DNA from: Planctomycetota bacterium
GTDB taxonomy: Bacteria > Planctomycetota > UBA11346
Length of the DNA: 26,611 bases
NCBI GenBank assembly: GCA_038213315.1
Contig: JBBQTJ010000008.1
Coordinates: forward strand, 1 to 26,611
Reading direction: 5' to 3'
In this document: positions 5,512 through 26,611 of the stretch, in pieces
Position numbering within the stretch: position 1 is the stretch's first letter
Layout of the letters: each line of letters starts with the position of its first letter
Position numbers and translations under genes: made by a program
The notes under the pieces: generated by a model
Seen by the model: the letters and a program-made list of their open reading frames with translations, nothing else
What the model was told of the DNA's origin: nothing
Database searches by the model: none

Positions 5512-8052
5512 GTGCTTGCCAGGATCACTGAAAAACGCCTGTTGATCGTTCGGTGGCTGCTGCTACTGGCCTGGTGCGGACTCATCGCCGGGCTGCTGAC
5601 CATGCCGACGTTGCCGTTCCTCACGCTCTGGTGGTCAGCGGCCATTCCCGCCTTCCTGCTGTGCGTGCTTGTGCTTGGGCACGACACTTGGCGGCGGATC
5701 TGCCCACTGTCGGCCCTGAACCAGGTGCCGCGCCTGCTCGGCATCGGCCGGACGACGAAGGTGGCCGCCGGCTCGTGGCTGTCGCGGCATGCGCTGATGG
5801 TGCAGTTCACCGTGCTGACTGCCTGCGTGGTCCTGCGCCTGACCGTCCTCAACCAGTCGAGCGAGGCCCTGGGCATCTTCCTCATCGCCCTCCTGGGCAC
5901 GGCCCTGCTGGTCGGCTTCCTGGCGGGCGGCAAGTCCTGGTGCCACTTTGCCTGCCCGCTGGCGCCGGTGCAGATGGTTTACAGCGGTCCGCGCGGACTG
6001 CTGGCCACGCCGGCGGCCCTGGGCGGCAGCGGGCCCGGCCTGAGCCAAAGCATGTGCCGCAACGTCCGCGACGAACCGACCTGCGTGGCCTGCCACGCGC
6101 CCTGCCCGGACATCGACCTCGAAAAAAGTTATTGGGAGCAGCTCGAAGGGTTTGAGCGCCGCGCGGTGGTCTATGGCTATTTGGGATTGGCGGCCGGTTA
6201 CGTGATCCATGTGCGCGGCGCGCTGCCGATTTTCTGGGCGGGGCCGGTGGTGGTGGCGGCGATCCTGCTTGCCATCGGTGCGGGTGCGCTGCTGGAGCGA
6301 GCTTTGCGCGCCGGCGAGGCTACCCGCCACCGCCTGATGACCCTGGCGACGGTGCTGGCCTTCGGTCTGCTTATCGCTGGCGCGCTGCTGCCCTCCCTGC
6401 CCCAGGGCCTGCGCCTGCCGGTCGCGGCACTGACGTCGGCCGCCGCCGCGACCTGGAGCTGGAACGTGTGGCGCCGCACGCGCCGGCTGTGGCAGCGCGA
6501 GGCCATGGCCTCGGTGTTCCGCCGCCGCCTGGCCGAGCTGCCGCTGGACCTGTCGCCGCACCTCGATGGCCGGACCTTGGACCAGCTCTCCACCGACGAG
6601 GTCGGGGTGTTGGCCGCGGTGCTGCCCGGACTCAACCAAAGCCTGCGCCAGCGCCTCTACCAGGGCGTGCTCACCGACGCCGCCGCGGCTGGCCAGCTCG
6701 GCTCGGCGGACGGCGACGCCATGCTCGGGCGGTTGCGTAGCCAGCTGCACATCCCCGACGACCAGCACGAACTGCTGGTGGCAGCCCTACCCACCGCCGG
6801 CTCGATCAAGCGCCTGGATAGCTACCGGCAGGCGGTGGAGCGGCTGGTCCTGGACGGCCTGTCCGAAGGTGAAGCCCTGGATGAGGCGATCGAGCGCCGT
6901 CGCGAATCGCTGAGCCAGCTGCGGGCCGCCTATAGCGTCACCGACGAGGAGCAGGAGCAGGTGGTCTTTGCCTTGGTCAACGGCGATGGCCTGATCGGCC
7001 GTGCCGGCTCCTCGCTGCTGGCCGAGCTTGAACGGCTGTGCGCCGCGCGGGCGGCCCTGGGCACGGCGGGCGCCGAGGGCTTCCTGCGCGCCCACCTGGA
7101 CGAGCGCGGCCGGGCCCTGGCCACGCAGTTCAACGGGGTGCAGGCCGCGCTCGGAACCAGCGCCGCTGGCCAGGCCCTGGCCGTGGCCCGCACCGCCGCG
7201 GCCATCGACCCCGACCTGGTACCCGGCGCGTCGGGCCGCATCGCGCCCCTGGCCGTGGCCGAGGTCCGCACGCTCCTGGGCGGGGACGCGGATCCGATCG
7301 TCGCGGCTGTCGCCCGCCAACCGACCAGCCCGGCGGTGGTCCTGCGCCTGGCCCTGGCGGGCGAGGACGTGCCGTGCCGGGAAGCCACCGCACGCATCGG
7401 CCGCGATCCCGCCTCGACCGTGGTGGTCACCCATCCCCAGGCCAGCCGCAACCACTGCCTGGTCGGGCTGGATGCGGATGGCGCCTGGCTCCACGATCTG
7501 GGCAGCGGCAACGGCACCCTGGTCGACGGCCGTCTGGTGCGCGGGGCGCGGGTGCGGTTGCGCGCCAATGCGGTGATCCGCATCGGCAGCGACGGCCCCA
7601 GCTTGGCCGTAGGTGCGCGCGACTACGTGCCCAGCGACCGGGTAGACCTTTTTCTCGCCCTGCGCGCTTCGGCCTTGGGCACGCTGCCACAGGCCGTGCT
7701 GTGGGACCTGGCCGAGGTCTCCGCCCTGCGCTTGGAGTCGGCCGGCACCCGGCTGATAGAGGAGGGCGCGCCGGTCTGGTCGCTGCTGGTGCTGGTCGGC
7801 GGCACGGCAGTGGCGACCAGTGGCGGCCGGACGGTGGGCGAGATCGCCGTTGGCGAGACCATCGGGGAACTGGCCCTGATCAGCGAGCAATCGGCCGCGG
7901 TCACGGTGACCGCGGTCACCGCCTGCACGACGCTGGCCATCCCCGGGATCAGGGTCGCCAGCCTGCTGGCCCGCCATCCCGGCGTGGCCACCGCTCTGCT
8001 CATGCTTACTGGTCGACGTCTTGCCAGCGCTGCAATTGCGGCTAACGACTAA
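5512..8052 (+). CDS. multidomain membrane protein: NapH/MauN-like polyferredoxin (COG0348-type) N-terminal domain + helical linker + FHA domain + C-terminal cyclic-nucleotide-binding (CAP-family) domain
   Basis: 846-aa ORF with a GTG start at 5512 (start uncertain; an internal Met lies at 5602). Multiple TM helices carry the Cys motifs RICPLSAL, GKSWCHFACPLAP and MCRNVRDEPTCVACHAPCPD (a CxxCxxxCP 4Fe-4S-type motif). The FHA core is RIGRDPASTVVV...NHCLVGLDADGAWLHDLGSGNGTLVDGRLV (about 7370-7660). The cNMP-binding core is GETIGELALISEQ near the C-terminus (about 7660-8040). Confidence 0.75.
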   Translation: MLARITEKRLLIVRWLLLLAWCGLIAGLLTMPTLPFLTLWWSAAIPAFLLCVLVLGHDTWRRICPLSALNQVPRLLGIGRTTKVAAGSWLSRHALMVQFTVLTACVVLRLTVLNQSSEALGIFLIALLGTALLVGFLAGGKSWCHFACPLAPVQMVYSGPRGLLATPAALGGSGPGLSQSMCRNVRDEPTCVACHAPCPDIDLEKSYWEQLEGFERRAVVYGYLGLAAGYVIHVRGALPIFWAGPVVVAAILLAIGAGALLERALRAGEATRHRLMTLATVLAFGLLIAGALLPSLPQGLRLPVAALTSAAAATWSWNVWRRTRRLWQREAMASVFRRRLAELPLDLSPHLDGRTLDQLSTDEVGVLAAVLPGLNQSLRQRLYQGVLTDAAAAGQLGSADGDAMLGRLRSQLHIPDDQHELLVAALPTAGSIKRLDSYRQAVERLVLDGLSEGEALDEAIERRRESLSQLRAAYSVTDEEQEQVVFALVNGDGLIGRAGSSLLAELERLCAARAALGTAGAEGFLRAHLDERGRALATQFNGVQAALGTSAAGQALAVARTAAAIDPDLVPGASGRIAPLAVAEVRTLLGGDADPIVAAVARQPTSPAVVLRLALAGEDVPCREATARIGRDPASTVVVTHPQASRNHCLVGLDADGAWLHDLGSGNGTLVDGRLVRGARVRLRANAVIRIGSDGPSLAVGARDYVPSDRVDLFLALRASALGTLPQAVLWDLAEVSALRLESAGTRLIEEGAPVWSLLVLVGGTAVATSGGRTVGEIAVGETIGELALISEQSAAVTVTAVTACTTLAIPGIRVASLLARHPGVATALLMLTGRRLASAAIAAND

Positions 8053-8069
8053 CAGGAAACCATGGTCCC

Positions 8070-9692
8070 ATGCTGACTCTGCGCATCTCACATCCCCTGC
8101 ATGGCGATCGGGTCGCGACGCTGACCCAGGGGGACTTCACTGGCGACGGGGTGGCCGTTGGCCGCGCCCCCCGTAACCGCATCGTCCTCGACGAGCAGGT
8201 GGTCAGCCGGCTGCACGCCCGCCTGACCCTGACTGCGGGCGGGGTCTTCATCGCCGACTGCGCCTCGACTGCGGGCATCCTGTTGAACGGCGTGCGGCTG
8301 CCGCCCAGCACCCCGGCGCGGGTGGCGGATGGGGATCTCATCGCCATCGGCCCGTACACTATCGCGCTCGCGCCGGCGGTCTCGCTGGCCGCAGAACCCG
8401 AGGGCCTGGGCTTAACCGTCATGGCCGCTCCGCCGGTGGATTCCTACATGCCGTTGGCCGTCCTCGCCGATCAGGAGCCGGCCCAGTGGACGGGCGGTGA
8501 GCTGGCCGTGCGCGTGGTGCGCATCATCGACGAGACGCCGGACGTGAAGACCTTCGTCTTTGCGGCTGCCCATCCGACCCAGTTCACCTACCTGCCTGGC
8601 CAGTTCGCTACCATCGAGGTCCTGATCGACGGGGTGAAGACCAGCCGCAGCTACACCCTGTCGTCGACGCCCACCCGCCCATATACGCTCTCGATCACCG
8701 TTAAACGCGTGGCTGCCGCCAACGATCTGCCGGCGGGCAAGGTCAGCTCCTGGCTGCACGCACACTTGGCCGTGGGCGATGAACTGCGCATCAATGGTCC
8801 CTTCGGCGACTTTTCGTGTGCCCGCCATCCCAGCCCGCGGCTGCTGCTGATCAGCGCCGGCAGCGGCATTACGCCCATGTTGTCGATGGCGCGTTGGCTG
8901 GCCGACAGCGCCGCCGAGGCCGACGTCGCCTTCGTGCACAGCGCACGCAGCAGCGCCGACTTGATCTGCCGCCAGGACCTCGAGCTGCTCGTCGTCCATA
9001 ACCCGCGCCTGCGCGTGGTGCTGGCGACCACCCGGCCCGAGCCCGGCTCGCGCTGGACCGGCCTGAGCGGGCGCATTTCTCTCGACATGTTGCGCCTGAC
9101 CGTGCCGGACTTCGAGCGCCGCACGGTGTTCTGCTGCGGCCCAGAGGGCTTCATGGCCGGCACCAAGGAGATGCTCGCCCAGGCCGGCTTCCCCATGGCG
9201 AACTACCACGAGGAGAGCTTCGGCGCGCCCAGGCGCCCCACGCCCGCGGCGACACACAACCAGTCGGCCGTGTCCCCGCCGACGGAGTTTGGGCTGAAGG
9301 CTTTGCTGCGCGTCGACGCCTCGCCCCGCGCTGCCGCGCCCATGACCGCTGCCGCGCCCATGACCGCCGCCGCGCCCGGCCCCCACGGCAGCAGCGCGAC
9401 CCGCACCGCCATAAAAACCGAGACACTGGGCAGCCTGCACTTCACCGGCAGCCGCGTCTCGCTGGTGTGCCCGCCGGCCCAGACCGTGCTCGAAGCGGGT
9501 GAGAGCAAGGGCATCAAGCTGCCCTTCGGCTGCCGCATTGGGAAATGCGGCGCCTGCAAACTGGTTAAGCGCAGCGGCGAGGTGCTGGCCGACGGCTACG
9601 ACGATAGCATCCTGAAGGCAGGCGAGCGCAGCAAGGGCTACGTCTTGGCCTGCATCGCCCGACCCGCGGGCCGGGTCGAGATCGAAGCGTAG
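8070..9692 (+). CDS. FHA domain fused to a ferredoxin-NAD(P) reductase-type oxidoreductase (FAD/NAD binding) with a C-terminal plant-type 2Fe-2S ferredoxin domain
   Basis: 540 aa, 18 bp downstream of the previous gene, so a likely operon. FHA: GRAPRNRIVLDEQVVSRLHARL...DCASTAGILLNGVRL...GDLIAIG. FAD motif RSYTLSS (RxYS), GKVSSWL, NAD motif LLLISAGSGITPML, and CGPEGFM. 2Fe-2S: CRIGKCGACK...YVLAC. The linker carries a tandem AAPMTAAAPMTAAAP repeat. Confidence 0.8.
   Translation: MLTLRISHPLHGDRVATLTQGDFTGDGVAVGRAPRNRIVLDEQVVSRLHARLTLTAGGVFIADCASTAGILLNGVRLPPSTPARVADGDLIAIGPYTIALAPAVSLAAEPEGLGLTVMAAPPVDSYMPLAVLADQEPAQWTGGELAVRVVRIIDETPDVKTFVFAAAHPTQFTYLPGQFATIEVLIDGVKTSRSYTLSSTPTRPYTLSITVKRVAAANDLPAGKVSSWLHAHLAVGDELRINGPFGDFSCARHPSPRLLLISAGSGITPMLSMARWLADSAAEADVAFVHSARSSADLICRQDLELLVVHNPRLRVVLATTRPEPGSRWTGLSGRISLDMLRLTVPDFERRTVFCCGPEGFMAGTKEMLAQAGFPMANYHEESFGAPRRPTPAATHNQSAVSPPTEFGLKALLRVDASPRAAAPMTAAAPMTAAAPGPHGSSATRTAIKTETLGSLHFTGSRVSLVCPPAQTVLEAGESKGIKLPFGCRIGKCGACKLVKRSGEVLADGYDDSILKAGERSKGYVLACIARPAGRVEIEA
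9333..9377 (+). repeat. in-frame tandem repeat (18-bp unit gccgcgcccatgaccgcy x2.5) in the linker of the FHA-FNR protein
   Basis: Direct sequence inspection: gccgcgcccatgaccgct gccgcgcccatgaccgcc gccgcgccc. It encodes AAPMTAAAPMTAAAP. Confidence 0.7.
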
Positions 9693-9693
9693 C

Positions 9694-9720
9694 GTCACGG
9701 GCCGCGGGACGGCCCGTGAC
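9694..9720. terminator. perfect GC-rich hairpin between convergent operons (candidate bidirectional terminator)
   Basis: gtcacgggccg-cggga-cggcccgtgac: an 11-bp perfect stem with a 5-nt loop. It lies between the stop of the + strand gene (9692) and the stop of the - strand gene (9724). No U-tract, so not a canonical intrinsic terminator. Confidence 0.45.
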
Positions 9721-9723
9721 CCG

Positions 9724-10599
9724 TTAGCCGCCGCCGAGCATCTTCATCGCCTTCTGCAGACTGATGCGCATGCGCGAGAACGAGCCGGCCAGGCTGGCGA
9801 TCTCATCCTTGCCGGCGATCTTGGGATCGCCCGCCGAGAAGTCGCCCTTGCTCACCTGGTCGCACAGGCGGCTCAGGCGGGTGATCGGCCGCACCACCAT
9901 CACGCGCATGGCGAGGTTGAGGCTGATCAGGGCCAGGACGCCAGCGGCGGTAAGCGAGCCCATGAACACCAAGAAGGTGGTGCGCGCGCGCTCCAGGGAC
10001 ACCGAGGCCGGCACGGCGACGATCTGGGCGCCGACGATCTCGTTCATCTTCCAGCCGAAGCCGTTGTTGGGGCCATAGATCTTGATCACGCTCGCCGGCG
10101 CCTTGTCCGGCGTGCTGTGGCAGTCCAGGCAGCTCGCGTTGGTGATCTGGATCGGCCGGGCGATGTACATGACTTCGCCGGTCGGGGTGGTGCGCGTGCC
10201 GGAGACCTCCTTCGCGGTTTCGTTATTGCGGAAGTAGCCGATGATGTCGCTCTCCCAGTCTACCGCCCGGTCGGCGGGGTTGGTCGGATTGAGGGCCGCC
10301 TCGCGGTAGGTGTAGTCGGAGTGCTTCACGCGCAGCAGGTCGAAGGCGCGCATGGCGGCGAAGGCCGGCACCGTCTCGGGATGGAACACGTCGGCACCGA
10401 GCTGGGCGACCAGCGGCTTGACGTTGTTGATGGTATAGGTGCGCATCGACATCGCCGCTTCGAGCATCAGCGTGGCGCGCTCCCGGATCTCCGCCCGGGC
10501 GTTGCTGTAGATGATCTGGTACGAGATGGTGCCCATGACCAGCAGGGCCGCCACGAAAGTCGCGGTGAGGATGAGCGTGAACTTGGTGCGGAGATTCAT
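9724..10599 (-). CDS. membrane signalling protein: periplasmic c-type-heme sensor domain (CXXCH; DUF3365/Tll0287-like) + TM + HAMP domain, with no output domain
   Basis: 291 aa. N-terminal TM FTLILTATFVAALLVMGTI. The periplasmic part contains CLDCH, a c-type heme-binding motif. A second TM FLVFMGSLTAAGVLALISLNLA is followed by a HAMP-like segment (RPITRLSRLCDQVSKGDFSAGD...EIASLAGSFSRM). Its start ATG overlaps the kinase stop (ATGA). Confidence 0.7.
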   Translation of the reverse strand: MNLRTKFTLILTATFVAALLVMGTISYQIIYSNARAEIRERATLMLEAAMSMRTYTINNVKPLVAQLGADVFHPETVPAFAAMRAFDLLRVKHSDYTYREAALNPTNPADRAVDWESDIIGYFRNNETAKEVSGTRTTPTGEVMYIARPIQITNASCLDCHSTPDKAPASVIKIYGPNNGFGWKMNEIVGAQIVAVPASVSLERARTTFLVFMGSLTAAGVLALISLNLAMRVMVVRPITRLSRLCDQVSKGDFSAGDPKIAGKDEIASLAGSFSRMRISLQKAMKMLGGG

Positions 10600-12053
10600 A
10601 TGAGGCTCAGTTTCTGCATTTCCTTGCGGAACGCGGCGCGGTCATGGTCGTCGGGGATCTCGCTTTCGAGCTGGGCGATGAGATCCTTGATGCTGCTCGC
10701 CTTGTTCACCATCCGCTTGACCAGCATCTGGGCGATCGGGCCGATGTGCTTGGCCAGTTCGCGGGAGATGTTCTCGGTAATCTCGTCGTCGGCGATCTTC
10801 GTGGCGGCACGCGGCGCGGTGGCGCGCGGCGCAATGGCATCTGCCCCCGCAGAGGAGCCGCTCGCCTCGATGGCCTTGCGCGCGGCGGCGGTGTTGAGCA
10901 GCGAGGTGATGTTCTCCAGCGCCGGCGAGGCGCGCAGCTGGTCGCCAGCCTGGGAAGTAAGGTTGTCGAGCAACTGCTGGGCGTTGGTCGCCGACTTGAT
11001 CGACTTGAACAAGACCGGCGTGGCCCGCTCGCCGATCGACTCCTCAAGCTGCTTGCGGATCTCCTCGACCAGGTGAGAAGGGATGGAGCGCATGCGCGTC
11101 AGGTCGACTGACGGCGCCTGGATACCGGTGACCATTGTGCGGTCTCCGTCTATCCCGCCGGCGAAACCGGGGACACCTTCAAGCCGTTGCAGCACCGCAT
11201 CGGCGTGCTGGGGCCGCTGCACCGCCTGCGGCCGCATCAGCCAGGCCAGCACCTGCGCCAGCTGCGCGCCGGCACTGTCCCGGGCGGCGATGACCTTCAG
11301 CGACCCGTCGATGCCGTCGGTCTGGTTGGACTGGTCCGAGATGGTGCGCTGGATCGCCTCGGTCGGAACAGTGCCGGTCAGGCAGTACAGCATGCAGGCG
11401 CCGACTGCGTACAGGTCGGTGGCCGGGCCCTGGGCATCGGTGCCGGTATATTGTTCCATGGGCGCATAGCCTGCGGTCACCAGCACCGTGAAGTTGCGCT
11501 CCTGGTCGCCCAGGTTTTGCCGGGCCGAGCCGAAGTCGAGCAACAGGATGCTGCCGTCGGGCCGGCGCATGATGTTGGCCGGTTTAATGTCACGGTGGAG
11601 GTAGCTGTGGGCGTGAATGACCCGCAGGGCCTTCAGGATCTCGATCAGGATGGCCCGCGCCTCGCCCACGCTAAGGGTGCCGTACTGGCGCACGTGATCG
11701 CGTAGCGTCATGCCCTCGACGTAGTCCATCACCATATAGGCGGTGTTGTTGGCCTCGTGGAAGCCGTGGACGTGCACGATGCGCGGGTCGCGGAACTGGG
11801 CGAGCGTGCGGGCCTCGTCCAGGAAGCGGTTGAGGCGCTTCCGGTAGCCCTCGTCGTCCACTTTGCCGGCGATGGTGAGCCCGTCCAAGGCCCGCGTCAC
11901 CTGGCCGTGCAGGAAGTACTCTTTGATGGCCACCATGCGCTGGAGCTGCACGTCCCAGGCCTGGTAGGTAAGGCCGAAGCCGCCGCGGCCCAGCAGTTTG
12001 GCGATGCGGTAGTGACCCAGCTGGGTGCCGGGCTGCAGGGCGTCGTCAGGCAT
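10596..12053 (-). CDS. Hanks-type serine/threonine protein kinase with a ~210-aa C-terminal helical extension containing an internal repeat
   Basis: Glycine loop LGRGGFGLTY, VAIK (catalytic Lys), HRDIKPANIM, DFGSAR and APE-like motifs. C-terminal repeats LVEEIRKQLEESIGERATPVL... and ITENISRELAKHIGPIAQMLV.... No TM segment. Translationally coupled to the downstream HAMP gene. Confidence 0.9.
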   Translation of the reverse strand: MPDDALQPGTQLGHYRIAKLLGRGGFGLTYQAWDVQLQRMVAIKEYFLHGQVTRALDGLTIAGKVDDEGYRKRLNRFLDEARTLAQFRDPRIVHVHGFHEANNTAYMVMDYVEGMTLRDHVRQYGTLSVGEARAILIEILKALRVIHAHSYLHRDIKPANIMRRPDGSILLLDFGSARQNLGDQERNFTVLVTAGYAPMEQYTGTDAQGPATDLYAVGACMLYCLTGTVPTEAIQRTISDQSNQTDGIDGSLKVIAARDSAGAQLAQVLAWLMRPQAVQRPQHADAVLQRLEGVPGFAGGIDGDRTMVTGIQAPSVDLTRMRSIPSHLVEEIRKQLEESIGERATPVLFKSIKSATNAQQLLDNLTSQAGDQLRASPALENITSLLNTAAARKAIEASGSSAGADAIAPRATAPRAATKIADDEITENISRELAKHIGPIAQMLVKRMVNKASSIKDLIAQLESEIPDDHDRAAFRKEMQKLSLI

Positions 12054-12707
12054 GGTGCCTCCAGGTAGGACCGGCTTGGGTCCGGAGGCAGGGCGCGGTG
12101 AAGGGCATGGCGGTGCGCATGGTTGTTTTGAGTATCATCGGCACAAGTGGGCATTAGCCTGACTTGAATATCATTGCTTTGCAACTGTCGCGCCCCGCTC
12201 GTGATCAGTTCCGCCCATGGTTCTAGCAGCGTAGCGGTAGACCTCGAGGCGCAGCTCTGGCGAAAATCCCGCCCCCACGGAGCCCTGCGCCGGAAGTCGC
12301 AAGTCTCATCAATCATGACGACGGCTTGATTCGGCGGCCGAGTGCAAGCGCTCATCTCGTAAGCACCGCCATCCTATCCGCGTGCTGGGACCGGGGCACC
12401 ACTGCGCCCGGGCCGATGCTGGCAGCCTGAGAATGTGGCCAAACGGTTTTATAACTGCGCCCGACGCCAGGTCCCTACCGGTAAGCTCAGCCAAGTAGAC
12501 TTCGAACTCCAACTGATCAATGCCGCTTACTGAGCTTTCCCATGCGGGTTGAGTGCGTCCTCTTGGGATTGCGGGCCACTGGCCCGCTCGAACGCCTGAT
12601 GGAAGGCATGCGAGCCGATGGCCGGCGGTCTCAGGGTTGCGCCGCGCCTAGTCAATCTATGAGTGAAAGCACAGTAACCAGCCGTTCGCAGCATCGGAGG
12701 AGGTCAT

Positions 12708-12959
12708 GTGTCGCGCAATTGGCTGACCGTGGGCTTTTGTGCGCGCTATGGCTTGACCGTGGCCAGCGTCGATCTGTCCGACCGCATCGCCGAGGCTCGG
12801 GCCTTGATCCTGGCCACGCATCTGCCCCTGGTCGAGATCGGCCGAGGCGTTGGGCTGCCGGATCCGCAGCACTTCAACAAGCGCTTCAAGACCTGTGGAA
12901 GACATCCCCCATCACACCTGCGCCGCGCTCGCGGCGCAGCATTTGGCGTGCGGGCATGA
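12708..12959 (+). pseudogene. AraC/XylS-family transcriptional regulator remnant (C-terminal HTH domain only)
   Basis: Frame opens after a TAA at 12675-12677. Translation SRNWLTVGFCARYGLTVASVDLSDRIAEARALILATHLPLVEIGRGVGLPDPQHFNKRFKTCGRHPPSHLRRAR matches the end of HTH1 plus the whole of HTH2 of AraC-family proteins. No N-terminal domain is present upstream in any frame. A strong GGAGGAGG SD precedes the GTG at 12708, so a truncated 83-aa product may still be made. Its stop overlaps the next start (ATGA). Confidence 0.5.
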
Positions 12960-13492
12960 GCACGCCCAGGCCCTATCAGCCATTCTGGTGCGAAGAGAAT
13001 ATCTGGCACCTGGCTGCGTCAGATGAGGTGGGTCCAGGCGAGCGCGTCGTCCTACTGGTGACCGGGGCGAGCGGTCAGGTGGCCTGCTGGGGGCAGCGTG
13101 CCGCCGCAGCCGGCGTGGCGATGCTGTGGGACTACCATGTGGTCTTGGCGGTACGTGGTCCTGGCGACACGGTGCTCTGGGATCTGGATTCCCGTCACGG
13201 CTGCCCGCTGCCACTGCCTCTGTGGCTGCACGAAACCTTCCCCAACAACGACCGGGTCCGGACTCTGTTCCAACCACGCTTCCAGATTATTCCGGCGCAG
13301 AATTACCGGCGGGATTTTTCCAGTGATCGCCAGCACATGCGCACGGCCAATGGCGCGTGGCAGCAGGCCCCACCAGCATGGCCGCTGATCACCGGCGGAG
13401 CCGTCACCTTGGCCGACTATCGGCAGCAGGCCCAGCACCAGGGCGTCGGGCTGACCGAGGTGGCCCAGCGACTGGCCCCGCAGCCGCTCTGA
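12956..13492 (+). CDS. protein N-terminal glutamine amidohydrolase (NTAQ1 / WDYHV-motif, Nt_Gln_amidase family) homolog
   Basis: 178 aa from ATG 12956. Motifs: FWCEENIWHL (eukaryotic NTAQ1 CYCEENIWKL, catalytic Cys), WDYHVVLAV (the family WDYHV signature), FSSDRQHMRT (FASDRSHMKD), NGAWQQAPP (GNWREPPP). The track ORF 12542..13492 is the same frame with an arginine-rich N-terminal extension that is probably not translated. Confidence 0.7.
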   Translation: MSTPRPYQPFWCEENIWHLAASDEVGPGERVVLLVTGASGQVACWGQRAAAAGVAMLWDYHVVLAVRGPGDTVLWDLDSRHGCPLPLPLWLHETFPNNDRVRTLFQPRFQIIPAQNYRRDFSSDRQHMRTANGAWQQAPPAWPLITGGAVTLADYRQQAQHQGVGLTEVAQRLAPQPL

Positions 13493-13523
13493 TGCGGTCG
13501 AAAACAGCGCGGTCTGCAAATGC

Positions 13524-13651
13524 ATGCGCAACAAGGAGCGGCTGCGCGCCATCGCCTCCGTCGTGGGCCTCAAGAACATCAGCTACTTCACCCGCGTCTT
13601 CCGCGCGCGGAGTTCACCACGCCGCTGCGCGGGCGCGCGCAGCAGGGCTGA
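13524..13651 (+). pseudogene. second AraC-family C-terminal fragment, frameshifted
   Basis: Reads ...ERLRAIASVVGLKNISYFTRVFRA and, after a frameshift in the GCGCGCGG run, EFTTPLRGRAQQG*. This equals the AraC-family HTH2 plus C-terminal tail (compare YFSRVFKKEFGVTPSEYR). Only about 40 aa of homology, and an indel is needed. Confidence 0.4.
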
Positions 13652-14338
13652 TCAGGAGCGGCTGTCCTGGGGGTGGTAGCGGACTTCGATCTGCTCCACA
13701 GGTTCGGTGCGGTCATCGGCGCCCAGGTGCGCGATGTCGGCCAGCGCTCCGGTCATGCGCCAGGTGCGATCCACCGGCAGGCGACGCACCAGGGTGGTGA
13801 GCGCAGCGGGATGCCAGTCACAGGCCACCGCCCGTCCGGTCATCAGCTTGGCCAGTTCGTTGAGGATGATCGCGTGACTGACCACCACCACGCGCTGGGC
13901 GAACGGCTTGCGCGCCTTCAGGTCGGCCACCACGGCGGTGCAGCGCTGTTGAATGGTGCGATCAGACTCCGGATGGCTCGGCTTGCCGGCCCCGACGCGA
14001 CGCTCGGCCCAGGCCGGATCCATGGCGCTGGTCGCGCTGAAGGGGCTGCCCAGCACCTGCGACAGCAAGACCTCGCCGAGGCGCCAATCCGCCGTGACGG
14101 TGGTGGCACAGGCCGCCGCGATGAGGTCGGCGGTTTCCAGACAGCTGCGGAAGGGTGAGGACAGCACCACCGTGGCCCCACCGTCAGCGGCCACGCGCGT
14201 GGCGGCATGCCGGGCCTGGGTCTGCCCGCTGGCGGCCAGCGCGGCATCAAGCCGCAAGTGCGGTTCGGTGCCCCGCACTTTCAAGCGCTGATCCCAAGAG
14301 AGGAGGTAGCCGTGGCGGATCAGGACGATGGTCTGCAT
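13652..14338 (-). CDS. histidine phosphatase (phosphoglycerate mutase family) protein
   Basis: Starts at MQTIVLIRHGY (RHG catalytic motif), with SSPFRSCLETADLIA and VVSHAIIL (the second His). The track ORF extends 22 codons further upstream, but the conserved family start is at the Met of MQTIVLIRHG. Confidence 0.7.
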   Translation of the reverse strand: MQTIVLIRHGYLLSWDQRLKVRGTEPHLRLDAALAASGQTQARHAATRVAADGGATVVLSSPFRSCLETADLIAAACATTVTADWRLGEVLLSQVLGSPFSATSAMDPAWAERRVGAGKPSHPESDRTIQQRCTAVVADLKARKPFAQRVVVVSHAIILNELAKLMTGRAVACDWHPAALTTLVRRLPVDRTWRMTGALADIAHLGADDRTEPVEQIEVRYHPQDSRS

Positions 14339-14580
14339 GTACCGCGAGGGTGGCGGGCCAGGGGCGGAACGGAATCCTGAAAATGCCCCTGGCTCTGCTG
14401 GCAATCGGGTCGATCCAGACGGCAGGATCAGGACATCAATGCACCTGCCTCGCTCTGGATCCTACCCTCATCACCCGCTTCTGTACCGACGGCAACACCG
14501 TGGTGCGAGGCGTGTTCAGCGCTGCCGAGGTCGCCCACTTCCGCACCCTGAGCCTAGCCCGCAGCGGCGGCAGAGCCGCC

Positions 14581-15499: not shown

Positions 15500-15620
15500 C
15501 GGACGATGTTGGCTCAGTCCCCTGAGCAACCTATTTGTGACAAAGGAGAGCCTGAGAGGCGTGGCCATGCCGCGCGACCCCAACACCTGATCCGGATCAT
15601 GCCGGCGGAGGGATGGTGCA
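15500..15620 (+). ncRNA. TPP (THI-box) riboswitch upstream of the transporter gene
   Basis: Contains CCUGAGAGG (CUGAGA box), then GACCCC, then ACCUGAUCCGGAUCAUGCCGGCGGAGGGA. This matches the conserved P4/P5 pyrophosphate-sensing core (consensus ACCUGAUCUGGAUAAUGCCAGCGUAGGGA). An extra 7-bp hairpin GCGUGGC-CAU-GCCGCGC sits between the CUGAGA and ACCC boxes. The 5' P2 strand is atypical. Context: it is divergent from thiD. Confidence 0.65.
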
Positions 15621-15624
15621 GCGC

Positions 15625-15660
15625 GTCCTCCGGCCGCGTCCTTCGCCATTTTTGGAGGAC
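15625..15660 (+). promoter_or_regulatory. SD-sequestering helix of the riboswitch expression platform
   Basis: GUCCUCC (15625-15631) is perfectly complementary to the GGAGGAC SD (15654-15660), which lies 4 nt upstream of ATG 15664. Confidence 0.5.
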
Positions 15661-15663
15661 TCC

Positions 15664-17106
15664 ATGGACGCACCCCTTGCCCTGCCCGCTATGATCATCG
15701 CCATCGTCGTGTGCGGTGGCTTCGCTCTGATGGGTGCGCTCAATGCGCGCCGTCAGAGCACTGATGCGGCCGCCTTCAACCAGGCCCGTGGCAGCACCGG
15801 AGCGCTGTGGTCGGCGCTCAGCCTGGTCGCGCTGATGGCCGGCACCTGGGTGCTGTTCAGCCCGGGCGAGATGACCAGTTACACCGGGGTGGCGACTTTG
15901 GTTGGGTATGCCCTCGGCATGGCAGCACCCTTGGTGATCCTGGCCTGGCTGGGTCCGGCCCTGGTTCGCCGCTATCCCGAGGCGGCTGGACCTGGGATGA
16001 TGGCGCGCGCCCGTTGGGGTGCGCCCGCGCAGCTGCTCGTCTCGGTCCTGACTGTGGCCTATATGGGCAGCTATGTGGTCGCTGAACTGACCGCGATCAG
16101 CGGTGCTTTCGGCATCGTCGCTGGTGTGCCGGCCTGGGCCACCGCGCTGCTGGTCGCCACCGCGACCCTGTCGTACGCCGCCTGGGGCGGGTTGCGCGTA
16201 ACCATCTTCACCGACGGTGTGCAGGCCTGGTTCATCCTGCCGCTACTGATCGCCGCCTTCATCGGGACCATCGGAGCTTTCGGCGGCTGGGAGGCAGCCC
16301 AACAGCCCCTGGCCGCGCGCGCCGACCTGATGACCCTGGCCAGCCGGCCCGGTATTGAGGCCGGCATGATGCTGATGCTGGGCATCATCGCCGCCAATCT
16401 GCTGGACCAAAGCGTCTGGCAGCGCGTCATCGCCTGCCGCGACGACGCCACCCGCCGCCGCGCCTTCTTGTTGGCCGCGCTCGGCATCATCCCGGTCATT
16501 CTGATGGCTGGGTGGTTCGGCTTATGGTACGCGGCGCGCAATGCCGACCTGGCCAATGCTTCGTCGGCCCTGTTCCAGGTCATCGCCCAGGCCACGCCAG
16601 CCTGGGTGGCCCTCGCCGTCCTCGCCCTCGCCCTGATCCTGGTGATGAGCACCCTCGGCTCGCTCGCTAACGGCCTCGCTGCCCTGGTCGCCGCCGATGT
16701 GGCCAGCTTCCGACCAGGCCTCTCGCCACGCCAGCGCTTGGCCATCGGCCGCGGGGTGACCATCGCTGCCGCCCTGATCGCCGTGCCCATCGCGGCGGCG
16801 CAGCCCAGTGTAACCTATGTCTTCCTGGCCGCGGATCTGCTCTGCGCCACGGCGGTGGTGCCGCTGTTTGCTGGGCTTCTTGGTGTGCGCCTGTCACAGT
16901 TTGGCTTATTTTCTGCCGTCGCCCTGGGCATGGCGTGCGCCATTCCGGCCTTCCCACGTCCCGATTTCGTCACCCCCTGGGTTGAGCTGCGTCCGCTGCT
17001 CCATCTGCCTGCCGACGTCAACGCCATGCTGGTCAGTTTCGCCCTGGCGGTGGTGGTGCCGCTGCTGGTGACCGTGGTGTGGCCCAAGGCGGCACCAGTT
17101 CGATAG
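15664..17106 (+). CDS. sodium:solute symporter family (SSF) transporter, ThiV-like (thiamine or HMP precursor uptake predicted from the riboswitch)
   Basis: About 12 predicted TM helices. SSF signature GGLRVTIFTDGVQ (compare GGxxAVxxTDxxQ). Start chosen at ATG 15664 with a GGAGGA SD. The track ATG at 15613 lies inside the aptamer. Confidence 0.75.
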   Translation: MDAPLALPAMIIAIVVCGGFALMGALNARRQSTDAAAFNQARGSTGALWSALSLVALMAGTWVLFSPGEMTSYTGVATLVGYALGMAAPLVILAWLGPALVRRYPEAAGPGMMARARWGAPAQLLVSVLTVAYMGSYVVAELTAISGAFGIVAGVPAWATALLVATATLSYAAWGGLRVTIFTDGVQAWFILPLLIAAFIGTIGAFGGWEAAQQPLAARADLMTLASRPGIEAGMMLMLGIIAANLLDQSVWQRVIACRDDATRRRAFLLAALGIIPVILMAGWFGLWYAARNADLANASSALFQVIAQATPAWVALAVLALALILVMSTLGSLANGLAALVAADVASFRPGLSPRQRLAIGRGVTIAAALIAVPIAAAQPSVTYVFLAADLLCATAVVPLFAGLLGVRLSQFGLFSAVALGMACAIPAFPRPDFVTPWVELRPLLHLPADVNAMLVSFALAVVVPLLVTVVWPKAAPVR

Positions 17107-17163
17107 CGTCGGTACGGAGGGGGGCGCGATCAATTGAGTGCACACCTGGATCAACCCGGGGGG

Positions 17164-19710
17164 ATGTCTCAACGATTGCGTTGGTTAGCCTGGGGCATGA
17201 GCACCGCCGCCATTCCCATCACCACGTTTTCCTCCCAGGCCAATATGGTTGACCTTGCGGGTACTTGGCGGTTGAGCGATGCCAGCGGTGGCAACGCCTG
17301 TCCGGTCAGCGTGCCGGGCGATGTGCACCATGCGCTTTTCTTGGCCAAGCTCATCCCGGACCCCTATTACGGTCTGAATGAAGAGCTGGTCCAATGGGTC
17401 GGCGAGCGCGATTGGCTCATGACTCGCACCGTGCAGATCGATGCGGCGATGCTGGCGGCGCCTTCGGTCTACCTCAATGCCGACACCCTCGACACCTTCT
17501 GTTCGGTCAGCATCAATGGCGTCGTCGCGATCGAGACCGGCAACCGCTTCCGCCGCTATCGCGTCGAGGTCAAGCCGCTGCTGAAGGCCGGCCTCAACAC
17601 CATCGAACTGCGGTTCCGCTCCAGCGTGCAGGAGATCAAGGCGCGGGCCGCCAAGCTGGCCTATCCCATCCCCTTCAGCACGGCTGGCCAGAAGATCCCA
17701 CATTGGAATCTCATCCGCAAGCCGATGTGCCATGGCGGCTGGGATTGGGGCATTTCCATCTTCTGCGCCGGGGTCAGCGGCGACCTGAGCTTGCGCGCCG
17801 TGCGCAGCGCCCGCATCGAGCACGTCACCACCGTGCAGGAACACGCCGTGGGCCGCGTGACGCTGAAGGTCACCGCCGAATTGCATGCGCTAGCCGCCGG
17901 CAGCACCACCTTCAGCGTCACCATCGACGGCAAGATCATACGGGTCCCGGTGACGCTCGCCGCGGGCACCACCACCGCGACTGCCAGTATGGTCATTCAC
18001 CAGCCCCGACTGTGGTGGCCCAACGGCCACGGCGAGCAGCCGCTTTACGAACTGATCGTCACCGCCGGCGACGAGACGGTGCACAAGCAGATCGGCCTGC
18101 GCACCCTGGAAGTCATCAACGCCAAGGATGCCATCGGCCGGCCCCTGACCATCCGGGTGAATGGCCGGGACATCTTCTGCAAAGGTGCGAACTGGATTCC
18201 CACCGATGCCTTCCCCGGCCGCCAGGAAGGACATTACGAGAATCTGATCACCAGCGCCAAGACGGCGCACATGAACATGCTGCGCGTCTGGGGCGGTGGC
18301 CAGTTCGAGGCGGATGCGTTCTACCGCCTGTGCGACCAGCACGGCATCATGATCTGGCATGACTTCATGTTCTCGTGCGCCCTGTATCCGGCGGACGAGG
18401 CCTTCCTTGGCGAGGTTCGCGCCGAGACCGAATACCAGGTCAAGCGCCTGCGCGACCACGTCAGCATTGCCCTGTGGTGCGGCGACAATGAGAATGTCGG
18501 TGCCCTCACCTGGTACGAGGAATCGCGCAAGAACCGCGATCGCTACCTCATCGACTGGGTCCGCCTGGATGATGCTCGCGGGCAGACGGCGCTAACCTGC
18601 GATCCGACTCGCACCTACTGGCCCAGCTCGCCCTGCGCCGGCCCCGGCGACTTCAGCGATACTTTCCACAACGACGGTGCCGGTGACATGCACTATTGGC
18701 GGGTCTGGCACGAGGGCTGTTCGTTCGACGCATATTACGAGGTGAAGCCGCGCTTCTGCTCGGAATTCGGCTACCAATCCTTCAACAGTCTGGAATCGGT
18801 GAGCGGCTACTGCCCACCGGAGGAGCGCAATATCACCGCACCGATCATGGAATGGCACCAGCGCAACGACGGCGGCAATCGTCGCATCAACGAGATGTTC
18901 TCGCGCTATTTCCGCATGCCGGTGGGCTTCGCGGCCACCCTGTACCTCTCGCAGGTTCAGCAGGCAGTGGCGATCAAGACGGCGGTGGAATTCTGGCGGA
19001 CCCTGCGGCCCCAGTGCATGGGCACGCTCTACTGGCAAATCAATGACATTTGGCCAGTGGCCAGCTGGGCCAGCGTCGAGTACGGCGGCAAGTGGAAGCA
19101 GCTTCACCACCACGCCCGCCGCTTCTTTCAACCGGTCATCGCCTGCGTGCAGCAGCGCAAGGACAAGGCTCGTCCGGAACTCGGGGAATTCATCGAGGCC
19201 TGGGCGGTCAGCGATTTGGCCACCGCCGGTGCGGTCGAGGTCGAGCTCGCCATCTGGGCCTTCGACGGGGTCAAGCGCAGCAGCGAGTCTTTCCCGCTCG
19301 ATCTCGCGGCTGGCAGTGCCCAGCGGATCGGCCAATGGCCGGTGACCCGCTTCTGCGCCGACGATCAGGCGCGGCGTGAGAGCTTCCTGCAGGTCACCCT
19401 GCGCGGCACCGTGGGCGGGGTGGCGATCAGCCATGCCAACACCCACTTCTTCACCGAGTACAAGCGCTGCCCCTTGGCCGATGCCACCATCACCAGCACC
19501 GTGGCCGGCAACGCCGTGACCCTGACCAGCGACCAGCCGGCCTTCTTCGTGGTCGCTAGCACCGACGGCATCCCTGGCGAGTTCGACGACAACAGCGTCA
19601 CCTTGCTGCCGGGTCAGCCCCAGACCCTGACCTTCGTGCCCCGCATCGGCGGCACCCCGTCCGGCTTGGCCAAGGCCCTGGCGGTAATGCATCTGCGGGC
19701 GACCTACTGA
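17164..19710 (+). CDS. glycoside hydrolase family 2 beta-mannosidase
   Basis: PHWNLIRKPMCHGGWDWG, WWPNGHGEQPLYEL, KGANWIP, NMLRVWGGG, WCGDNE (acid/base Glu) and CSEFGYQS (nucleophile Glu) all match the beta-mannosidase subfamily of GH2. Start ambiguous: TTG 17134, ATG 17164 (chosen) or ATG 17245. Confidence 0.85.
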   Translation: MSQRLRWLAWGMSTAAIPITTFSSQANMVDLAGTWRLSDASGGNACPVSVPGDVHHALFLAKLIPDPYYGLNEELVQWVGERDWLMTRTVQIDAAMLAAPSVYLNADTLDTFCSVSINGVVAIETGNRFRRYRVEVKPLLKAGLNTIELRFRSSVQEIKARAAKLAYPIPFSTAGQKIPHWNLIRKPMCHGGWDWGISIFCAGVSGDLSLRAVRSARIEHVTTVQEHAVGRVTLKVTAELHALAAGSTTFSVTIDGKIIRVPVTLAAGTTTATASMVIHQPRLWWPNGHGEQPLYELIVTAGDETVHKQIGLRTLEVINAKDAIGRPLTIRVNGRDIFCKGANWIPTDAFPGRQEGHYENLITSAKTAHMNMLRVWGGGQFEADAFYRLCDQHGIMIWHDFMFSCALYPADEAFLGEVRAETEYQVKRLRDHVSIALWCGDNENVGALTWYEESRKNRDRYLIDWVRLDDARGQTALTCDPTRTYWPSSPCAGPGDFSDTFHNDGAGDMHYWRVWHEGCSFDAYYEVKPRFCSEFGYQSFNSLESVSGYCPPEERNITAPIMEWHQRNDGGNRRINEMFSRYFRMPVGFAATLYLSQVQQAVAIKTAVEFWRTLRPQCMGTLYWQINDIWPVASWASVEYGGKWKQLHHHARRFFQPVIACVQQRKDKARPELGEFIEAWAVSDLATAGAVEVELAIWAFDGVKRSSESFPLDLAAGSAQRIGQWPVTRFCADDQARRESFLQVTLRGTVGGVAISHANTHFFTEYKRCPLADATITSTVAGNAVTLTSDQPAFFVVASTDGIPGEFDDNSVTLLPGQPQTLTFVPRIGGTPSGLAKALAVMHLRATY

Positions 19711-20401: not shown

Positions 20402-20770
20402 TCAGGAGATGAGGCTGTTGCGCATGGTCATGATGCGCTTCGACAGTTCACGATTGGATGCCGCTTTGGACGCGACATCAAGCACATTGATCAACTGTAC
20501 CTTGTAGTCCGGCGGACAATCGGGCAGCGCGTTAAGCAGCGGCAGTTCGATCGCTTCCCACACCGTTGTCAGGCCACGCTGATCGCCACGCTTGGCTAGT
20601 CCGTCCAGCACGCGGCTGGCTTCGATGCAGCGCACGGCGCCGTTGGCTGACAGCACGCGGTCGATCGATGGCTGCGGATTGCCACCGACCCGCCGGGCCC
20701 ACATGACCAGGAAGAACGCCGCGACCAGCGCGCTGAGGAAGAGCAGGAACGGCATCAGCCAACCACTCAT
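20402..20770 (-). CDS. hypothetical membrane-anchored protein encoded downstream of the flotillin-like gene
   Basis: 122 aa from ATG 20770: MSGWLMPFLLFLSALVAAFFLVMW (one TM) plus a soluble domain. The track ORF extends upstream into the flotillin gene's 3' end. No SD. Not NfeD-like (no OB-fold motif). Confidence 0.4.
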   Translation of the reverse strand: MSGWLMPFLLFLSALVAAFFLVMWARRVGGNPQPSIDRVLSANGAVRCIEASRVLDGLAKRGDQRGLTTVWEAIELPLLNALPDCPPDYKVQLINVLDVASKAASNRELSKRIMTMRNSLIS

Positions 20771-20777
20771 CGCCAAG

Positions 20778-22475
20778 TCACTTGCGTGGTGCGGGCGCTG
20801 CGCTGCCCGGAGTCGCCGGTTGGATCTGCACCTGCGGTTTGAGCTGTCCGCCCAGGATGGTTCCCGCCAGCGCGTCCATCGTGCCACCGCCGGAACCGAC
20901 CATGACGTGCGGGGTGATCTGGACCTTACCCTCGCTGATCAGCTTCATCAGCTCCAGCGTGGTCACGCCTTCGGGCCCGATGGCACCAGCCATCGCGGTG
21001 TAGGCCTTCTGCTTGGCCTCGGCGGTGATGGTGATGTAGCTCGCCTCGCCCTTGGCCTCGGCCTCGCGCGCCTTGGCCTCCTGCTCGGCGACCTGCACCT
21101 TGTAGGTCGCCTGGGCGAGCTGGCGCTGCTGCGCGGCTTCTTCCTCGGCCTTGATGAAGGTGGCGCGCGCTTCTTCGGCACGCTTTTTCTCGGCGAAGGT
21201 CGCCTGCTGATTGACCGCGACCTCGCGGTCGGTCTGGGTCAGCAGCAATTGCTTGCCGGCTTCGGTCTCATCCAGGTCGATGTTGCCGATGAACACGCCC
21301 TCGCTGTCCAGACGGTACTTCTTCAGTTCATCGCGCATGCTCTGGCTGGCAGTGGCTTCGACCTGGGTGCGGCTGCTGACGAACTGGAGTGCGTTCATGG
21401 TCTCGGCGACGTTGCGGATGATGGTGCGCACCAGCGGCAGGATGACCTTCGCTTCGAGCACGCTCAGGGTGTCGTCCTCCTGCTCGTCCTTGGTCATCAG
21501 GTCGGGATTGGCGAGTAGCGCGACCAGATAGGGGGCCTCTTCCGCCGATACCGACACTGACACGCGCACGTCGACCGGGAAGGTGAAGCCATCCTTCGAA
21601 CGCACCCTGATCGCCCACTTCTTATCTTGGTACGTGTAGATGCGGTTGGTGGTCTGCACCTTCACCACTTGGTAGGCATCCGGATGCAGGTTGTAGGCAC
21701 CGGGCGGCAGCGGCTGTTTCCAGATGCCCTGGTATTCATTGGGAACCAGCGCCGTGCCATTGATCACCGTCAGTTCCTCGCCGGGTTTGGGCACGTAGCG
21801 TGGGCCCGCGTTGGCCTTGATCACAGCGACCTCGCCCACGCCAATGGTCAGCGCCAGCTTGGAGGTGACGGTGAAGAGCCGCGGATTGAAACGGTAACGG
21901 CCTGGCGTCACCACCGTCAACTGTGGCCCGCGATGCCCCTTGTCGCTCTTGAGGAAGCCCTCTCCATCCAGCATCGCCTCACTCGATTCCCATTTTGGTG
22001 CGAAGACATCGGTTCCTGATGGCGGTTTGCCGTCCAGTGCGACGACCACACCGACGTGGCCCTGTTCGATCGCCACCGTCTCCACCTGGTTGAGATTGTA
22101 AAGCCAGGGCCAGTAGCCGAAGTGCCACCCGGGCCCAAGCATCCGCGCTTGCGGTCCTTTTTGGCCTTCCTCAGCCACCACGCGGTTGGGCGGCAGATCC
22201 GCACCAAACTTGCGGATGACGATGCCGCCCTGGTCATCGTTGACGTAGATTGCGGTCGAGAAGGCGATCGCTACCAGCGCCGCCAGCGTGGCTGCCACCG
22301 CCCCCATCAATCCCAGTGCGCGGTTGCCAGCGACCAGTACCGGGGCGGTGAACAGCACCACTGCGGTGACCAGCAGCAACAAGGCGATGGCGAAGAGCAT
22401 CATGGCAAAACCCCCCGGACGGGCAGGAATGTCTGGCGGCGTGGGGGGAATCAATGCCCAGATGGGAAGAGACAT
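20778..22475 (-). CDS. flotillin-like SPFH/band-7 domain protein (YqiK family)
   Basis: N-terminal hydrophobic segments, then an SPFH core, then a long EA-rich coiled coil (EKKRAEEARATFIKAEEEAAQQRQLAQATYKVQVAEQEAKAREAEAKGE) and a flotillin-type C-terminus. Start uncertain: TTG 22499, ATG 22475 (chosen) or ATG 22403. Confidence 0.8.
   Translation of the reverse strand: MSLPIWALIPPTPPDIPARPGGFAMMLFAIALLLLVTAVVLFTAPVLVAGNRALGLMGAVAATLAALVAIAFSTAIYVNDDQGGIVIRKFGADLPPNRVVAEEGQKGPQARMLGPGWHFGYWPWLYNLNQVETVAIEQGHVGVVVALDGKPPSGTDVFAPKWESSEAMLDGEGFLKSDKGHRGPQLTVVTPGRYRFNPRLFTVTSKLALTIGVGEVAVIKANAGPRYVPKPGEELTVINGTALVPNEYQGIWKQPLPPGAYNLHPDAYQVVKVQTTNRIYTYQDKKWAIRVRSKDGFTFPVDVRVSVSVSAEEAPYLVALLANPDLMTKDEQEDDTLSVLEAKVILPLVRTIIRNVAETMNALQFVSSRTQVEATASQSMRDELKKYRLDSEGVFIGNIDLDETEAGKQLLLTQTDREVAVNQQATFAEKKRAEEARATFIKAEEEAAQQRQLAQATYKVQVAEQEAKAREAEAKGEASYITITAEAKQKAYTAMAGAIGPEGVTTLELMKLISEGKVQITPHVMVGSGGGTMDALAGTILGGQLKPQVQIQPATPGSAAPAPRK

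Positions 22476-24147: not shown

Positions 24148-26611
<2,464 letters not shown>

Follow-up and report, generated by a model that had tools for sequence, protein, structure and literature searches.

The window analyzed here, a stretch of 26,611 nucleotides (nt) from a Planctomycetota bacterium (contig JBBQTJ010000008.1), carries a gene for a 178-residue protein of the NTAQ1 family of N-terminal glutamine amidohydrolases. The gene lies between the remnants of two AraC-type regulator genes, termed AraC-A (upstream) and AraC-B (downstream), and the relic of a transposase gene is found upstream of AraC-A. A divergent Ser/Thr protein kinase gene and a convergent histidine phosphatase gene flank the locus on the left and right sides, respectively; coordinates are collected in Table 1. 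In animals and plants, NTAQ1 enzymes convert N-terminal Gln to Glu, marking proteins for destruction. A sequence-only reading of the window had described the protein as a eukaryote-type NTAQ1 homolog nested between two fragmentary regulator genes, and its bacterial relatives as rare and uncharacterized. We followed up this description by computational analysis of the protein, its locus and its family.

An NTAQ1-family protein with an intact predicted active site

The 178-residue protein, which starts with MSTPRPYQPFWCEENIWHL, matches the Pfam profile PF09764 (Nt_Gln_amidase) at positions 1–172 of 184 with 118 bits (E value 4.8e-34), against a gathering score of 27 bits. Human NTAQ1 chains (4w79 and 3c9q) are its sole sequence-level matches in the PDB (E 7e-23). 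The motifs CEENIW, WDYHVV, SDRQHM and W..PP are all present. Given the catalytic triad Cys28-His81-Asp97 of human NTAQ1 (PMC4214742), the aligned residues are Cys12, His61 and Asp76, which are invariant in both alignments that we built, A2 of 32 sequences including the human one and A5 of 40 bacterial sequences. In twelve co-crystal structures of the human enzyme, Glu29, Asp79, Tyr80, His148 and Met149 bind the alpha-amino group and the first backbone atoms of the substrate (PMC11168063). Their counterparts Glu13, Asp59, Tyr60, His127 and Met128 are likewise all invariant. Altogether, the residues invariant in A2 and A5 are C12, E13, E14, N15, L19, W58, D59, Y60, H61, V62, D76, H127, M128 and P140, and those invariant in A2 and at least 90% conserved in A5 are D78 and R125. 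The auxiliary human Glu158 is replaced by Gln137. The human sequence in A2 is one residue off the PDB chain (Ile for Val in CEENVW), which was corrected for the scoring of homologs described below.

Structural modeling gave a concordant picture. The AlphaFold2 model, computed from the bacterial alignment, has a mean predicted local distance difference test score (pLDDT) of 96.3 and a predicted template modeling score (pTM) of 0.91. A Foldseek search of the PDB with this model retrieved 17 chains of human NTAQ1, which superimpose over about 181 columns and the full length at template modeling scores (TM, normalized to the query) of 0.85–0.87. The next-best match was protein-glutaminase at a TM of 0.40, and no other strong match was found. 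NCBIfam contains no model that covers the protein. Profile score, triad, alpha-amino-binding residues and alpha-beta-alpha sandwich fold, namely all computable features of the family, are present. The 178-residue protein is a bona fide NTAQ1-family member with an intact predicted active site, and the homology proposed in the sequence-only reading is borne out by profile search, human match, motifs and triad alignment alike. As judged from the conserved pocket, its specificity is predicted to be for N-terminal Gln.

The two families retrieved by Foldseek differ clearly in their relation to the window protein. The human and mouse enzymes (C8orf32/WDYHV1; PDB 4W79, 3C9Q and the 8JJx series) resemble it in fold, and the human enzyme resembles it in triad, CEEN/WDYHV/SDRxHM motifs and the five substrate-binding residues, at about 27–28% identity over the whole domain. 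In contrast, human NTAQ1 has 205 residues, and the window protein lacks its N-terminal extension of about 16 residues. The last two helices of the window protein also differ from those of human NTAQ1 and follow a pattern of their own clade, TLADY..QA..G.GL. Protein-glutaminase (Chryseobacterium; PDB 2KSV/2ZK9 and 8Z3I) is a distant structural match (E 8e-3 to 2e-2) without sequence-level similarity. Like NTAQ1, it and the transglutaminase- or papain-like deamidases apply a papain-like Cys-His-Asp chemistry to Gln side chains. Deamidases of the protein-glutaminase type are secreted as pro-enzymes and act on internal Gln, and the alpha-amino recognition residues of NTAQ1 are absent from their family definition.

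A maintained amidase gene beside two decayed regulators

The locus was compared with those of two relatives, at 83% (L009) and 70% identity (L007), and of two sister strains (L002 and L005). The ratio of nonsynonymous to synonymous substitution rates (dN/dS) of the amidase gene ranges from 0.24 to 0.36 (0.36 against L009 and 0.25 against L007); that of the neighboring kinase gene is 0.23 and that of the phosphatase gene 0.07. Over 537 nt, the amidase gene differs from its copy in L002 by two synonymous and no nonsynonymous changes, and L005 shows one further silent change. The identical 178-residue protein occurs on 7 metagenome contigs, the six displayed being from six different samples. The amidase gene is a maintained resident of the locus under purifying selection.

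Furthermore, the gene has a GC content of 0.65–0.67, the same as its flanks, which argues against a recent arrival. The gene order kinase, NTAQ1, AraC-B, histidine phosphatase (His_Phos) and ThiD is common to the window and L007, and the junction between the upstream remnant and the NTAQ1 gene, including a 4-bp overlap, is common to both relatives and therefore old. A search for an intact AraC gene at the syntenic site was possible only with L007 and L009; the orthologs of the phosphatase gene at about 70% identity in three other loci (L092, L094 and L095) have unrelated neighbors.

In the upstream remnant, the AraC-A open reading frame (ORF) matches the helix-turn-helix (HTH) profile PF12833 (HTH_18) at positions 7–79 of 80 (E 1.2e-8; 35.6 bits, cutoff 33.6) and the AraC equivalog model at positions 216–285 of 292. 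About 10 additional AraC-like codons extend on its 5' side back to a TAA at 12675–12677, and reading back past this stop detected no AraC N-terminal domain. As the sequence-only reading had recognized, only the C-terminal HTH half of the regulator is left. The dN/dS of AraC-A is 0.73 against L009, and its last 50 codons show five nonsynonymous changes and one synonymous change against L002. A 78-bp in-frame deletion (26 codons) is found inside AraC-A in L002 and L005. In L007, about 35 recognizable codons remain (E 1.7e-5), which run into the ATGA at the amidase start. AraC-A is a pseudogene remnant evolving almost neutrally.

Of the integrase-core (rve, IS3-like) gene upstream of AraC-A, which has decayed, the final ~28 codons are left as a transposase relic that ends in ...GKLSQVDFELQLINAAY* with the stop at 12531–12533. 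It has no Pfam match on its own and no inverted repeats were found at it. In L009, the corresponding segment (908–990) closes a longer transposase remnant with a frameshift; once the frame was corrected manually, this remnant matched rve_2 (45 bits, cutoff 22) and rve_3. This rve-type piece is a relic and not an element. Given its adjacency to the break, insertion of an insertion sequence (IS) was probably linked to the loss of the AraC-A front. In L009, about 130 codons of frameshifted rve-type transposase (629–1009) directly abut the upstream HTH stub. The stop of the relic is separated from the Shine-Dalgarno-like octamer GGAGGAGG by about 164 bp in the window (12531–12694) and by only about 18 bp in L009. 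The 164-bp spacer, which has no repeat or RNA family match, could stem from the former IS end or from an insertion of other origin.

Downstream of the amidase gene, AraC-like sequence is found in two frames, in a pair of short ORFs that overlap (13520..13651 and 13524..13679). Its Pfam match is weak (HTH_AraC, E 9.5e-4, below the cutoff), and its identity is given by orthology to the C-terminus of a 102-residue HTH ORF at the same position in L007, at 64% amino acid (tblastn) and 83% DNA identity. The two-HTH domain of the L007 ORF is complete, and the SoxS and RamA models match this ORF from one end to the other. Relative to it, AraC-B lacks about 290 bp, corresponding to the spacer and about 55 codons, and has two smaller deletions, one of 21 bp and one of 1 nt at 13609/13610; the 1-nt deletion accounts for the two-frame appearance. 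As a result, the frame is not intact through the second HTH. The original stop (13649–13651) abuts the convergent phosphatase gene, and the sister strains L002 and L005 contain an extra 1-nt indel in an A-run near 13503. The frameshifted C-terminal fragment reported earlier is thus real. The phosphatase is a conserved right-hand neighbor, with 91% amino acid identity to its L007 ortholog. In L009, the amidase gene is followed not by the AraC-B remnant and the phosphatase gene but by a gene for a PAF-acetylhydrolase-like alpha/beta hydrolase that is secreted, so that the right flank has been rearranged there.

Both fragments correspond to the DNA-binding domain with two HTHs at the C-terminus of AraC/XylS regulators, a family including MarA, SoxS and RamA. 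Unlike these regulators, the fragments are incomplete, lack an N-terminal sensing domain, evolve under relaxed selection and carry indels, and the downstream one is frameshifted. As MarA, SoxS and RamA have no domain other than the HTH, the short ORFs might instead be functional single-domain activators of this kind that regulate the amidase gene. The complete ORF of L007 fits such a proposal, as does the AraC-A ORF in being open in three lineages and preceded by a well-placed GGAGG. We consider the proposal very unlikely, because the AraC-A ORF begins at HTH_18 position 7 without the first helices, shows the relaxed selection, the deletion and the erosion in L007 described above, and because the AraC-B copy of the window comprises about 45 frameshifted codons. 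Functional MarA-like ORFs in the window were rejected on these grounds of incomplete domains, relaxed selection and indels.

Another alternative assumes that the amidase gene was acquired horizontally in recent times, perhaps from a eukaryote, and split a single AraC gene on insertion. The AraC-like sequences on both sides and the nearby transposase remnant are what such an event might leave. Nevertheless, this alternative is extremely improbable and already contradicted. Each remnant is the C-terminal HTH domain of a different gene, and the two are not halves of one gene; accordingly, two regulators decayed, and an insertion of the amidase gene into one was rejected. Neither direct nor inverted repeats were found to flank the amidase gene, and the repeat search detected no IS ends or target duplications around it. 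Recent transfer was rejected in view of the flank-like GC content and the arrangement common to relatives at synonymous divergences (dS) of 0.27–0.8, and the bacterial family members come from several phyla and have identities as low as about 32%. Each of the two AraC pieces is the remnant of a decayed gene, and the locus is a case of ordinary gene decay with an IS scar. Of the earlier suggestion that the regulators had been destroyed around the gene by insertion or decay, the decay therefore stands, and so do past insertions and deletions at the locus, as seen from the transposase relic and the strain-level indels in both remnants; the insertion of the amidase gene into a regulator does not.

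The start codon of the amidase gene (12956–12958) overlaps the TGA of the AraC-A ORF (12957–12959) as ATGA, in agreement with the earlier description. The strong Shine-Dalgarno sequence described there, the octamer GGAGGAGG, is present at the reported kind of place, 4 nt before the GTG start of the AraC-A ORF; however, it occurs once in the window against 1.16 times expected by chance, so that only its position is informative and not its presence. The ATGA junction is kept in the window, L009 and L007, with the upstream stub open in all three lineages, and 4-bp overlaps with unrelated upstream genes recur for NTAQ1 homologs of other lineages. In addition, the 78-bp deletion of the sister strains preserves the frame, and the GGAGG is well placed. 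These observations hint that the AraC-A stub may persist as a leader ORF for translational coupling. Against this idea, one in three random deletions is in frame, and high-GC DNA tends to keep ORFs open. The remnants provide a clean small example of neighbors eroding around a selected gene that is kept, with one stub possibly retained for translational coupling. Overlap with the stop codon of whichever gene lies upstream is a recurrent trait across the NTAQ1 family.

Bacterial relatives, gene neighborhoods and the predicted reaction

Relatives of the protein were found at 312 loci in 185,579 species genomes (one genome per species), about 0.2% of species, a lower bound as the scan was seeded by two motifs. 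When 1.84 billion cluster representatives were searched exhaustively with HMMER, 1,620 clusters at the 50% identity level reached E ≤ 1e-3, and 910 reached E ≤ 1e-10. The 130 clusters obtained by a word-indexed search all had PF09764 and were mostly of 170–185 residues and mostly unnamed or labeled "hypothetical protein", occasional members being auto-annotated by JGI. Carriers in the Myxococcota include Polyangia, Nannocystales, Minicystis rosea, Plesiocystis pacifica, Enhygromyxa salina and Sandaracinus; further carriers are found among Planctomycetota, Lentisphaeria, Chromatiaceae (Halochromatium and Lamprobacter), Acidobacteriota, Melainabacteria, Bradymonadales, Bdellovibrionales and a few Bacteroidota.

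We further collected 266 homologs from libraries without taxonomy, which are presumably prokaryotic as judged by their length (median 183 residues). All but one of them have CEEN (265), and all but two have WDYHV (264). They are 27% to 44% identical to human NTAQ1, and 43 score nearer to the human protein than to the window protein. The NTAQ1 family is no eukaryotic oddity; it is old in bacteria and has diversified there. The term "eukaryote-type" is thus overstated for a family so deeply diversified in bacteria. "Rare and uncharacterized" holds in so far as the family is uncommon and no paper on a bacterial member turned up in the literature searched, and fails in that 312 loci and 1,620 clusters are not exceptional. 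Nothing here is a new family; the enzyme is an uncharacterized bacterial member of a known family already in Pfam. The spread through Myxococcota and Planctomycetota may bear on the origin of the eukaryotic enzyme, as the human protein falls within the range of bacterial divergence. In the last 40 columns of A2, two bacterial types can be distinguished. One reads TLADY..QAR..GLDL (window protein, Planctomycetota and Polyangia); the other, NL..F.D....G.v..l, resembles the human C-terminus, in line with the 43 homologs nearer to human NTAQ1.

For the gene neighborhoods, genes were called in the 80 best genome loci, and the first and second neighbors on each side were scanned against Pfam. AraC is not enriched, being outside the 25 most frequent neighbor families. 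Three lineage-specific partners encoded upstream on the same strand are conspicuous, many of them with a 4-bp overlap. In five Myxococcota loci, a gene for an FHA-domain protein of 190–215 residues lies directly upstream on the same strand, with a 4-bp overlap in three of the five. These amidases are 38–60% and their FHA partners 57–72% mutually identical; given this divergence, the pair is old and resembles a conserved two-gene unit. In three Lentisphaeria loci, the homolog overlaps by 4 bp with, and is translationally coupled to, an upstream gene for a stand-alone Lon substrate-binding-domain protein (Lon-N) of about 211 residues (PF02190, E ~1e-30). In seven Chromatiaceae loci of Halochromatium and Lamprobacter, a gene for phosphoenolpyruvate (PEP) carboxylase (931 residues) is directly upstream, with a 4-bp overlap in three. 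A gamma-glutamyltranspeptidase gene is downstream of the homolog in four loci, and the Lentisphaeria loci show a gene of that size downstream on the other strand. The Lon-N partner points to proteolysis and the FHA partner to phospho-signaling; both are suggestive and neither is decisive.

The best overall explanation, which we regard as probable, is that the window encodes a functional NTAQ1-type amidase, an old resident beside two decayed regulators. The protein would be a cytosolic cysteine amidase using the Cys12-His61-Asp76 triad. As the pocket suggests, its most likely substrate would be N-terminal Gln on proteins or peptides, the side-chain amide of which would be hydrolyzed to yield N-terminal Glu and ammonia; these polypeptides are expected to be cytosolic and generated by endoproteolysis. 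The long-standing amidase gene would originally have stood second in a pair with an araC-like regulator gene, the two joined by the 4-bp ATGA overlap, and a second AraC-type gene would have lain downstream. Both regulators have decayed in this lineage: the upstream one lost everything N-terminal of its HTH, perhaps through the rve-type IS next to the break, and deletions and a frameshift cut down the downstream one. The stub of the upstream regulator, still open and ending on the amidase start, may now be only a leader ORF that supplies the amidase gene with ribosomes. Finally, the N-terminal Glu products could receive Leu from a Bpt-type transferase and enter ClpS-ClpAP degradation, or the deamidation itself could be the purpose.

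Several points weigh against this explanation. Our literature search found no study of a bacterial NTAQ1 homolog and no enzymatic assay of a bacterial member. Scanning positions 12000–13800 revealed no promoter- or terminator-like sites, though the consensus may not suit this phylum. ClpS, Leu_Phe_trans (Aat) and ATE_N/ATE_C (Bpt) are not among the 25 most frequent families of any neighbor set in the 80 loci, and the annotated genes of the window include no ClpS, Aat or Bpt. Methionine aminopeptidase (MetAP) is not known to expose N-terminal Gln, so that substrates would require prior endoproteolysis, and we know of no N-terminal Gln substrate made in this way.

These neighborhood results bear directly on what the predicted reaction might serve. 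To our knowledge, the bacterial host has no ubiquitin system, ATE1 or UBR ligases; the downstream pathway therefore cannot equal that of human NTAQ1. In the Leu/N-degron route known from bacteria (ClpS, Aat/LFTR and Bpt), the predicted N-terminal Glu product would fit upstream, as N-terminal Glu is a substrate of the Bpt Leu-transferase of Vibrio vulnificus, and a proposed route from Gln to Glu to Leu-Glu to ClpS is chemically coherent. The amidase could thus be the first step of a three-tier pathway, in which Gln is a tertiary destabilizing residue that is converted to Glu, a Bpt-type enzyme adds Leu, and ClpS delivers the product to ClpAP. The conserved NTAQ1 pocket, including the alpha-amino recognition residues, agrees with this proposal, and the coupling to Lon-N in Lentisphaeria hints at proteolysis. 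We nevertheless regard it as rather unlikely, given that bpt, aat and clpS are unlinked to the homologs as described above and that the N-degron literature we searched describes no amidase step in bacteria.

It is possible, if still somewhat unlikely, that the enzyme deamidates N-terminal Gln or another Gln substrate for purposes unrelated to degradation, such as blocking pyroglutamate formation on processed proteins, maturing or regulating particular signaling proteins, or scavenging nitrogen from peptides. In favor of such a role, no N-degron neighbor is conserved, the lineage-specific partners are signaling or metabolic proteins (FHA, PEP carboxylase and gamma-glutamyltranspeptidase), and the window gene itself adjoins a cluster of Ser/Thr kinase, HAMP and FHA genes. 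However, the invariant residues that read the alpha-amino group argue for N-terminal Gln of polypeptides rather than internal Gln or small molecules, and adjacency to kinase and FHA genes is common by chance in kinase-rich phyla.

Beyond the locus itself, a broader proposal is that certain bacterial groups (Myxococcota, Planctomycetota, Lentisphaerota, Chromatiaceae and others) own a tertiary N-degron tier of NTAQ1 deamidation, Bpt leucylation and ClpS-ClpAP degradation, with the coupled FHA or Lon-N partner perhaps regulating the enzyme or delivering substrates in some clades. We put this forward as a speculation that is more probably wrong than right by a wide measure. The N-degron literature we searched lists primary and secondary destabilizing N-terminal residues for bacteria but reports Nt-amidases, which create tertiary ones, from eukaryotes alone. 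With a bacterial NTAQ1 that is conserved, under selection and equipped with the full substrate-recognition pocket, it becomes testable whether N-terminal Gln is deamidated in bacteria and whether the product feeds Bpt- and ClpS-dependent degradation.

Remaining features of the window

Most long ORFs in 1–2400 and 20500–26600 have no Pfam match at E ≤ 1e-3, with the exception of a Band_7/SPFH gene, and scans of the window for Rfam families and tRNAs gave no hits. Further genes of the window are given in Table 1.

Table 1. Features of the window, followed by paired genes in other genomes (positions in the respective locus)
Feature	Position	Strand	Remark
Fucose pyrophosphorylase + GHMP-kinase protein, 967 residues	2493-5396		bifunctional fucokinase/GDP-fucose pyrophosphorylase type
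FHA + cNMP-binding protein, 846 residues	5512-8052		
FHA + ferredoxin-reductase + 2Fe-2S fusion, 540 residues	8070-9692		
Tll0287-like/HAMP protein	9724-10599	-	4-bp overlap with kinase gene
Ser/Thr protein kinase, divergent left-hand neighbor	10596..12053	-	Pkinase E 3.3e-37; synteny with L007, L009
Decayed rve (IS3-like) transposase, last ~28 codons	12447..12533	+	76% DNA identity to L009 908-990
AraC-A remnant, C-terminal HTH domain only	12678..12959	+	HTH_18, AraC equivalog model
GGAGGAGG, Shine-Dalgarno-like octamer (GGAGG)	12696..12703	+	4 nt before GTG at 12708
AraC-A ORF, 83 residues, GTG start	12708..12959	+	TGA overlaps NTAQ1 ATG
NTAQ1-family N-terminal glutamine amidohydrolase homolog, 178 residues	12956..13492	+	PF09764, human NTAQ1 match, structure model
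AraC-B remnant, last ~45 codons of HTH domain, frameshifted	13524..13651	+	alignment to L007 102-residue ORF
Histidine phosphatase (His_Phos_1), convergent with and abutting AraC-B	13652..14341	-	PF00300 E 1e-19
Sodium:solute symporter	15613-17106		
GH2 beta-mannosidase-like gene	17134-19710		
Band_7/SPFH protein, 573 residues	20778-22499	-	
FHA/NTAQ1 pairs	L035 7326-8519; L054 7405-8519; L056 870-2017; L070 7360-8519; L077 7324-8528		
Lon-N/NTAQ1 pairs	L021 7330-8534; L025 7318-8534; L038 2711-3915		
PEP carboxylase/NTAQ1 loci	L028, L050, L055, L058, L064, L071, L088, around position 8000		

The divergent kinase gene to the left of the amidase locus belongs to a kinase/HAMP/FHA signaling cluster that extends over positions 5512–12053.

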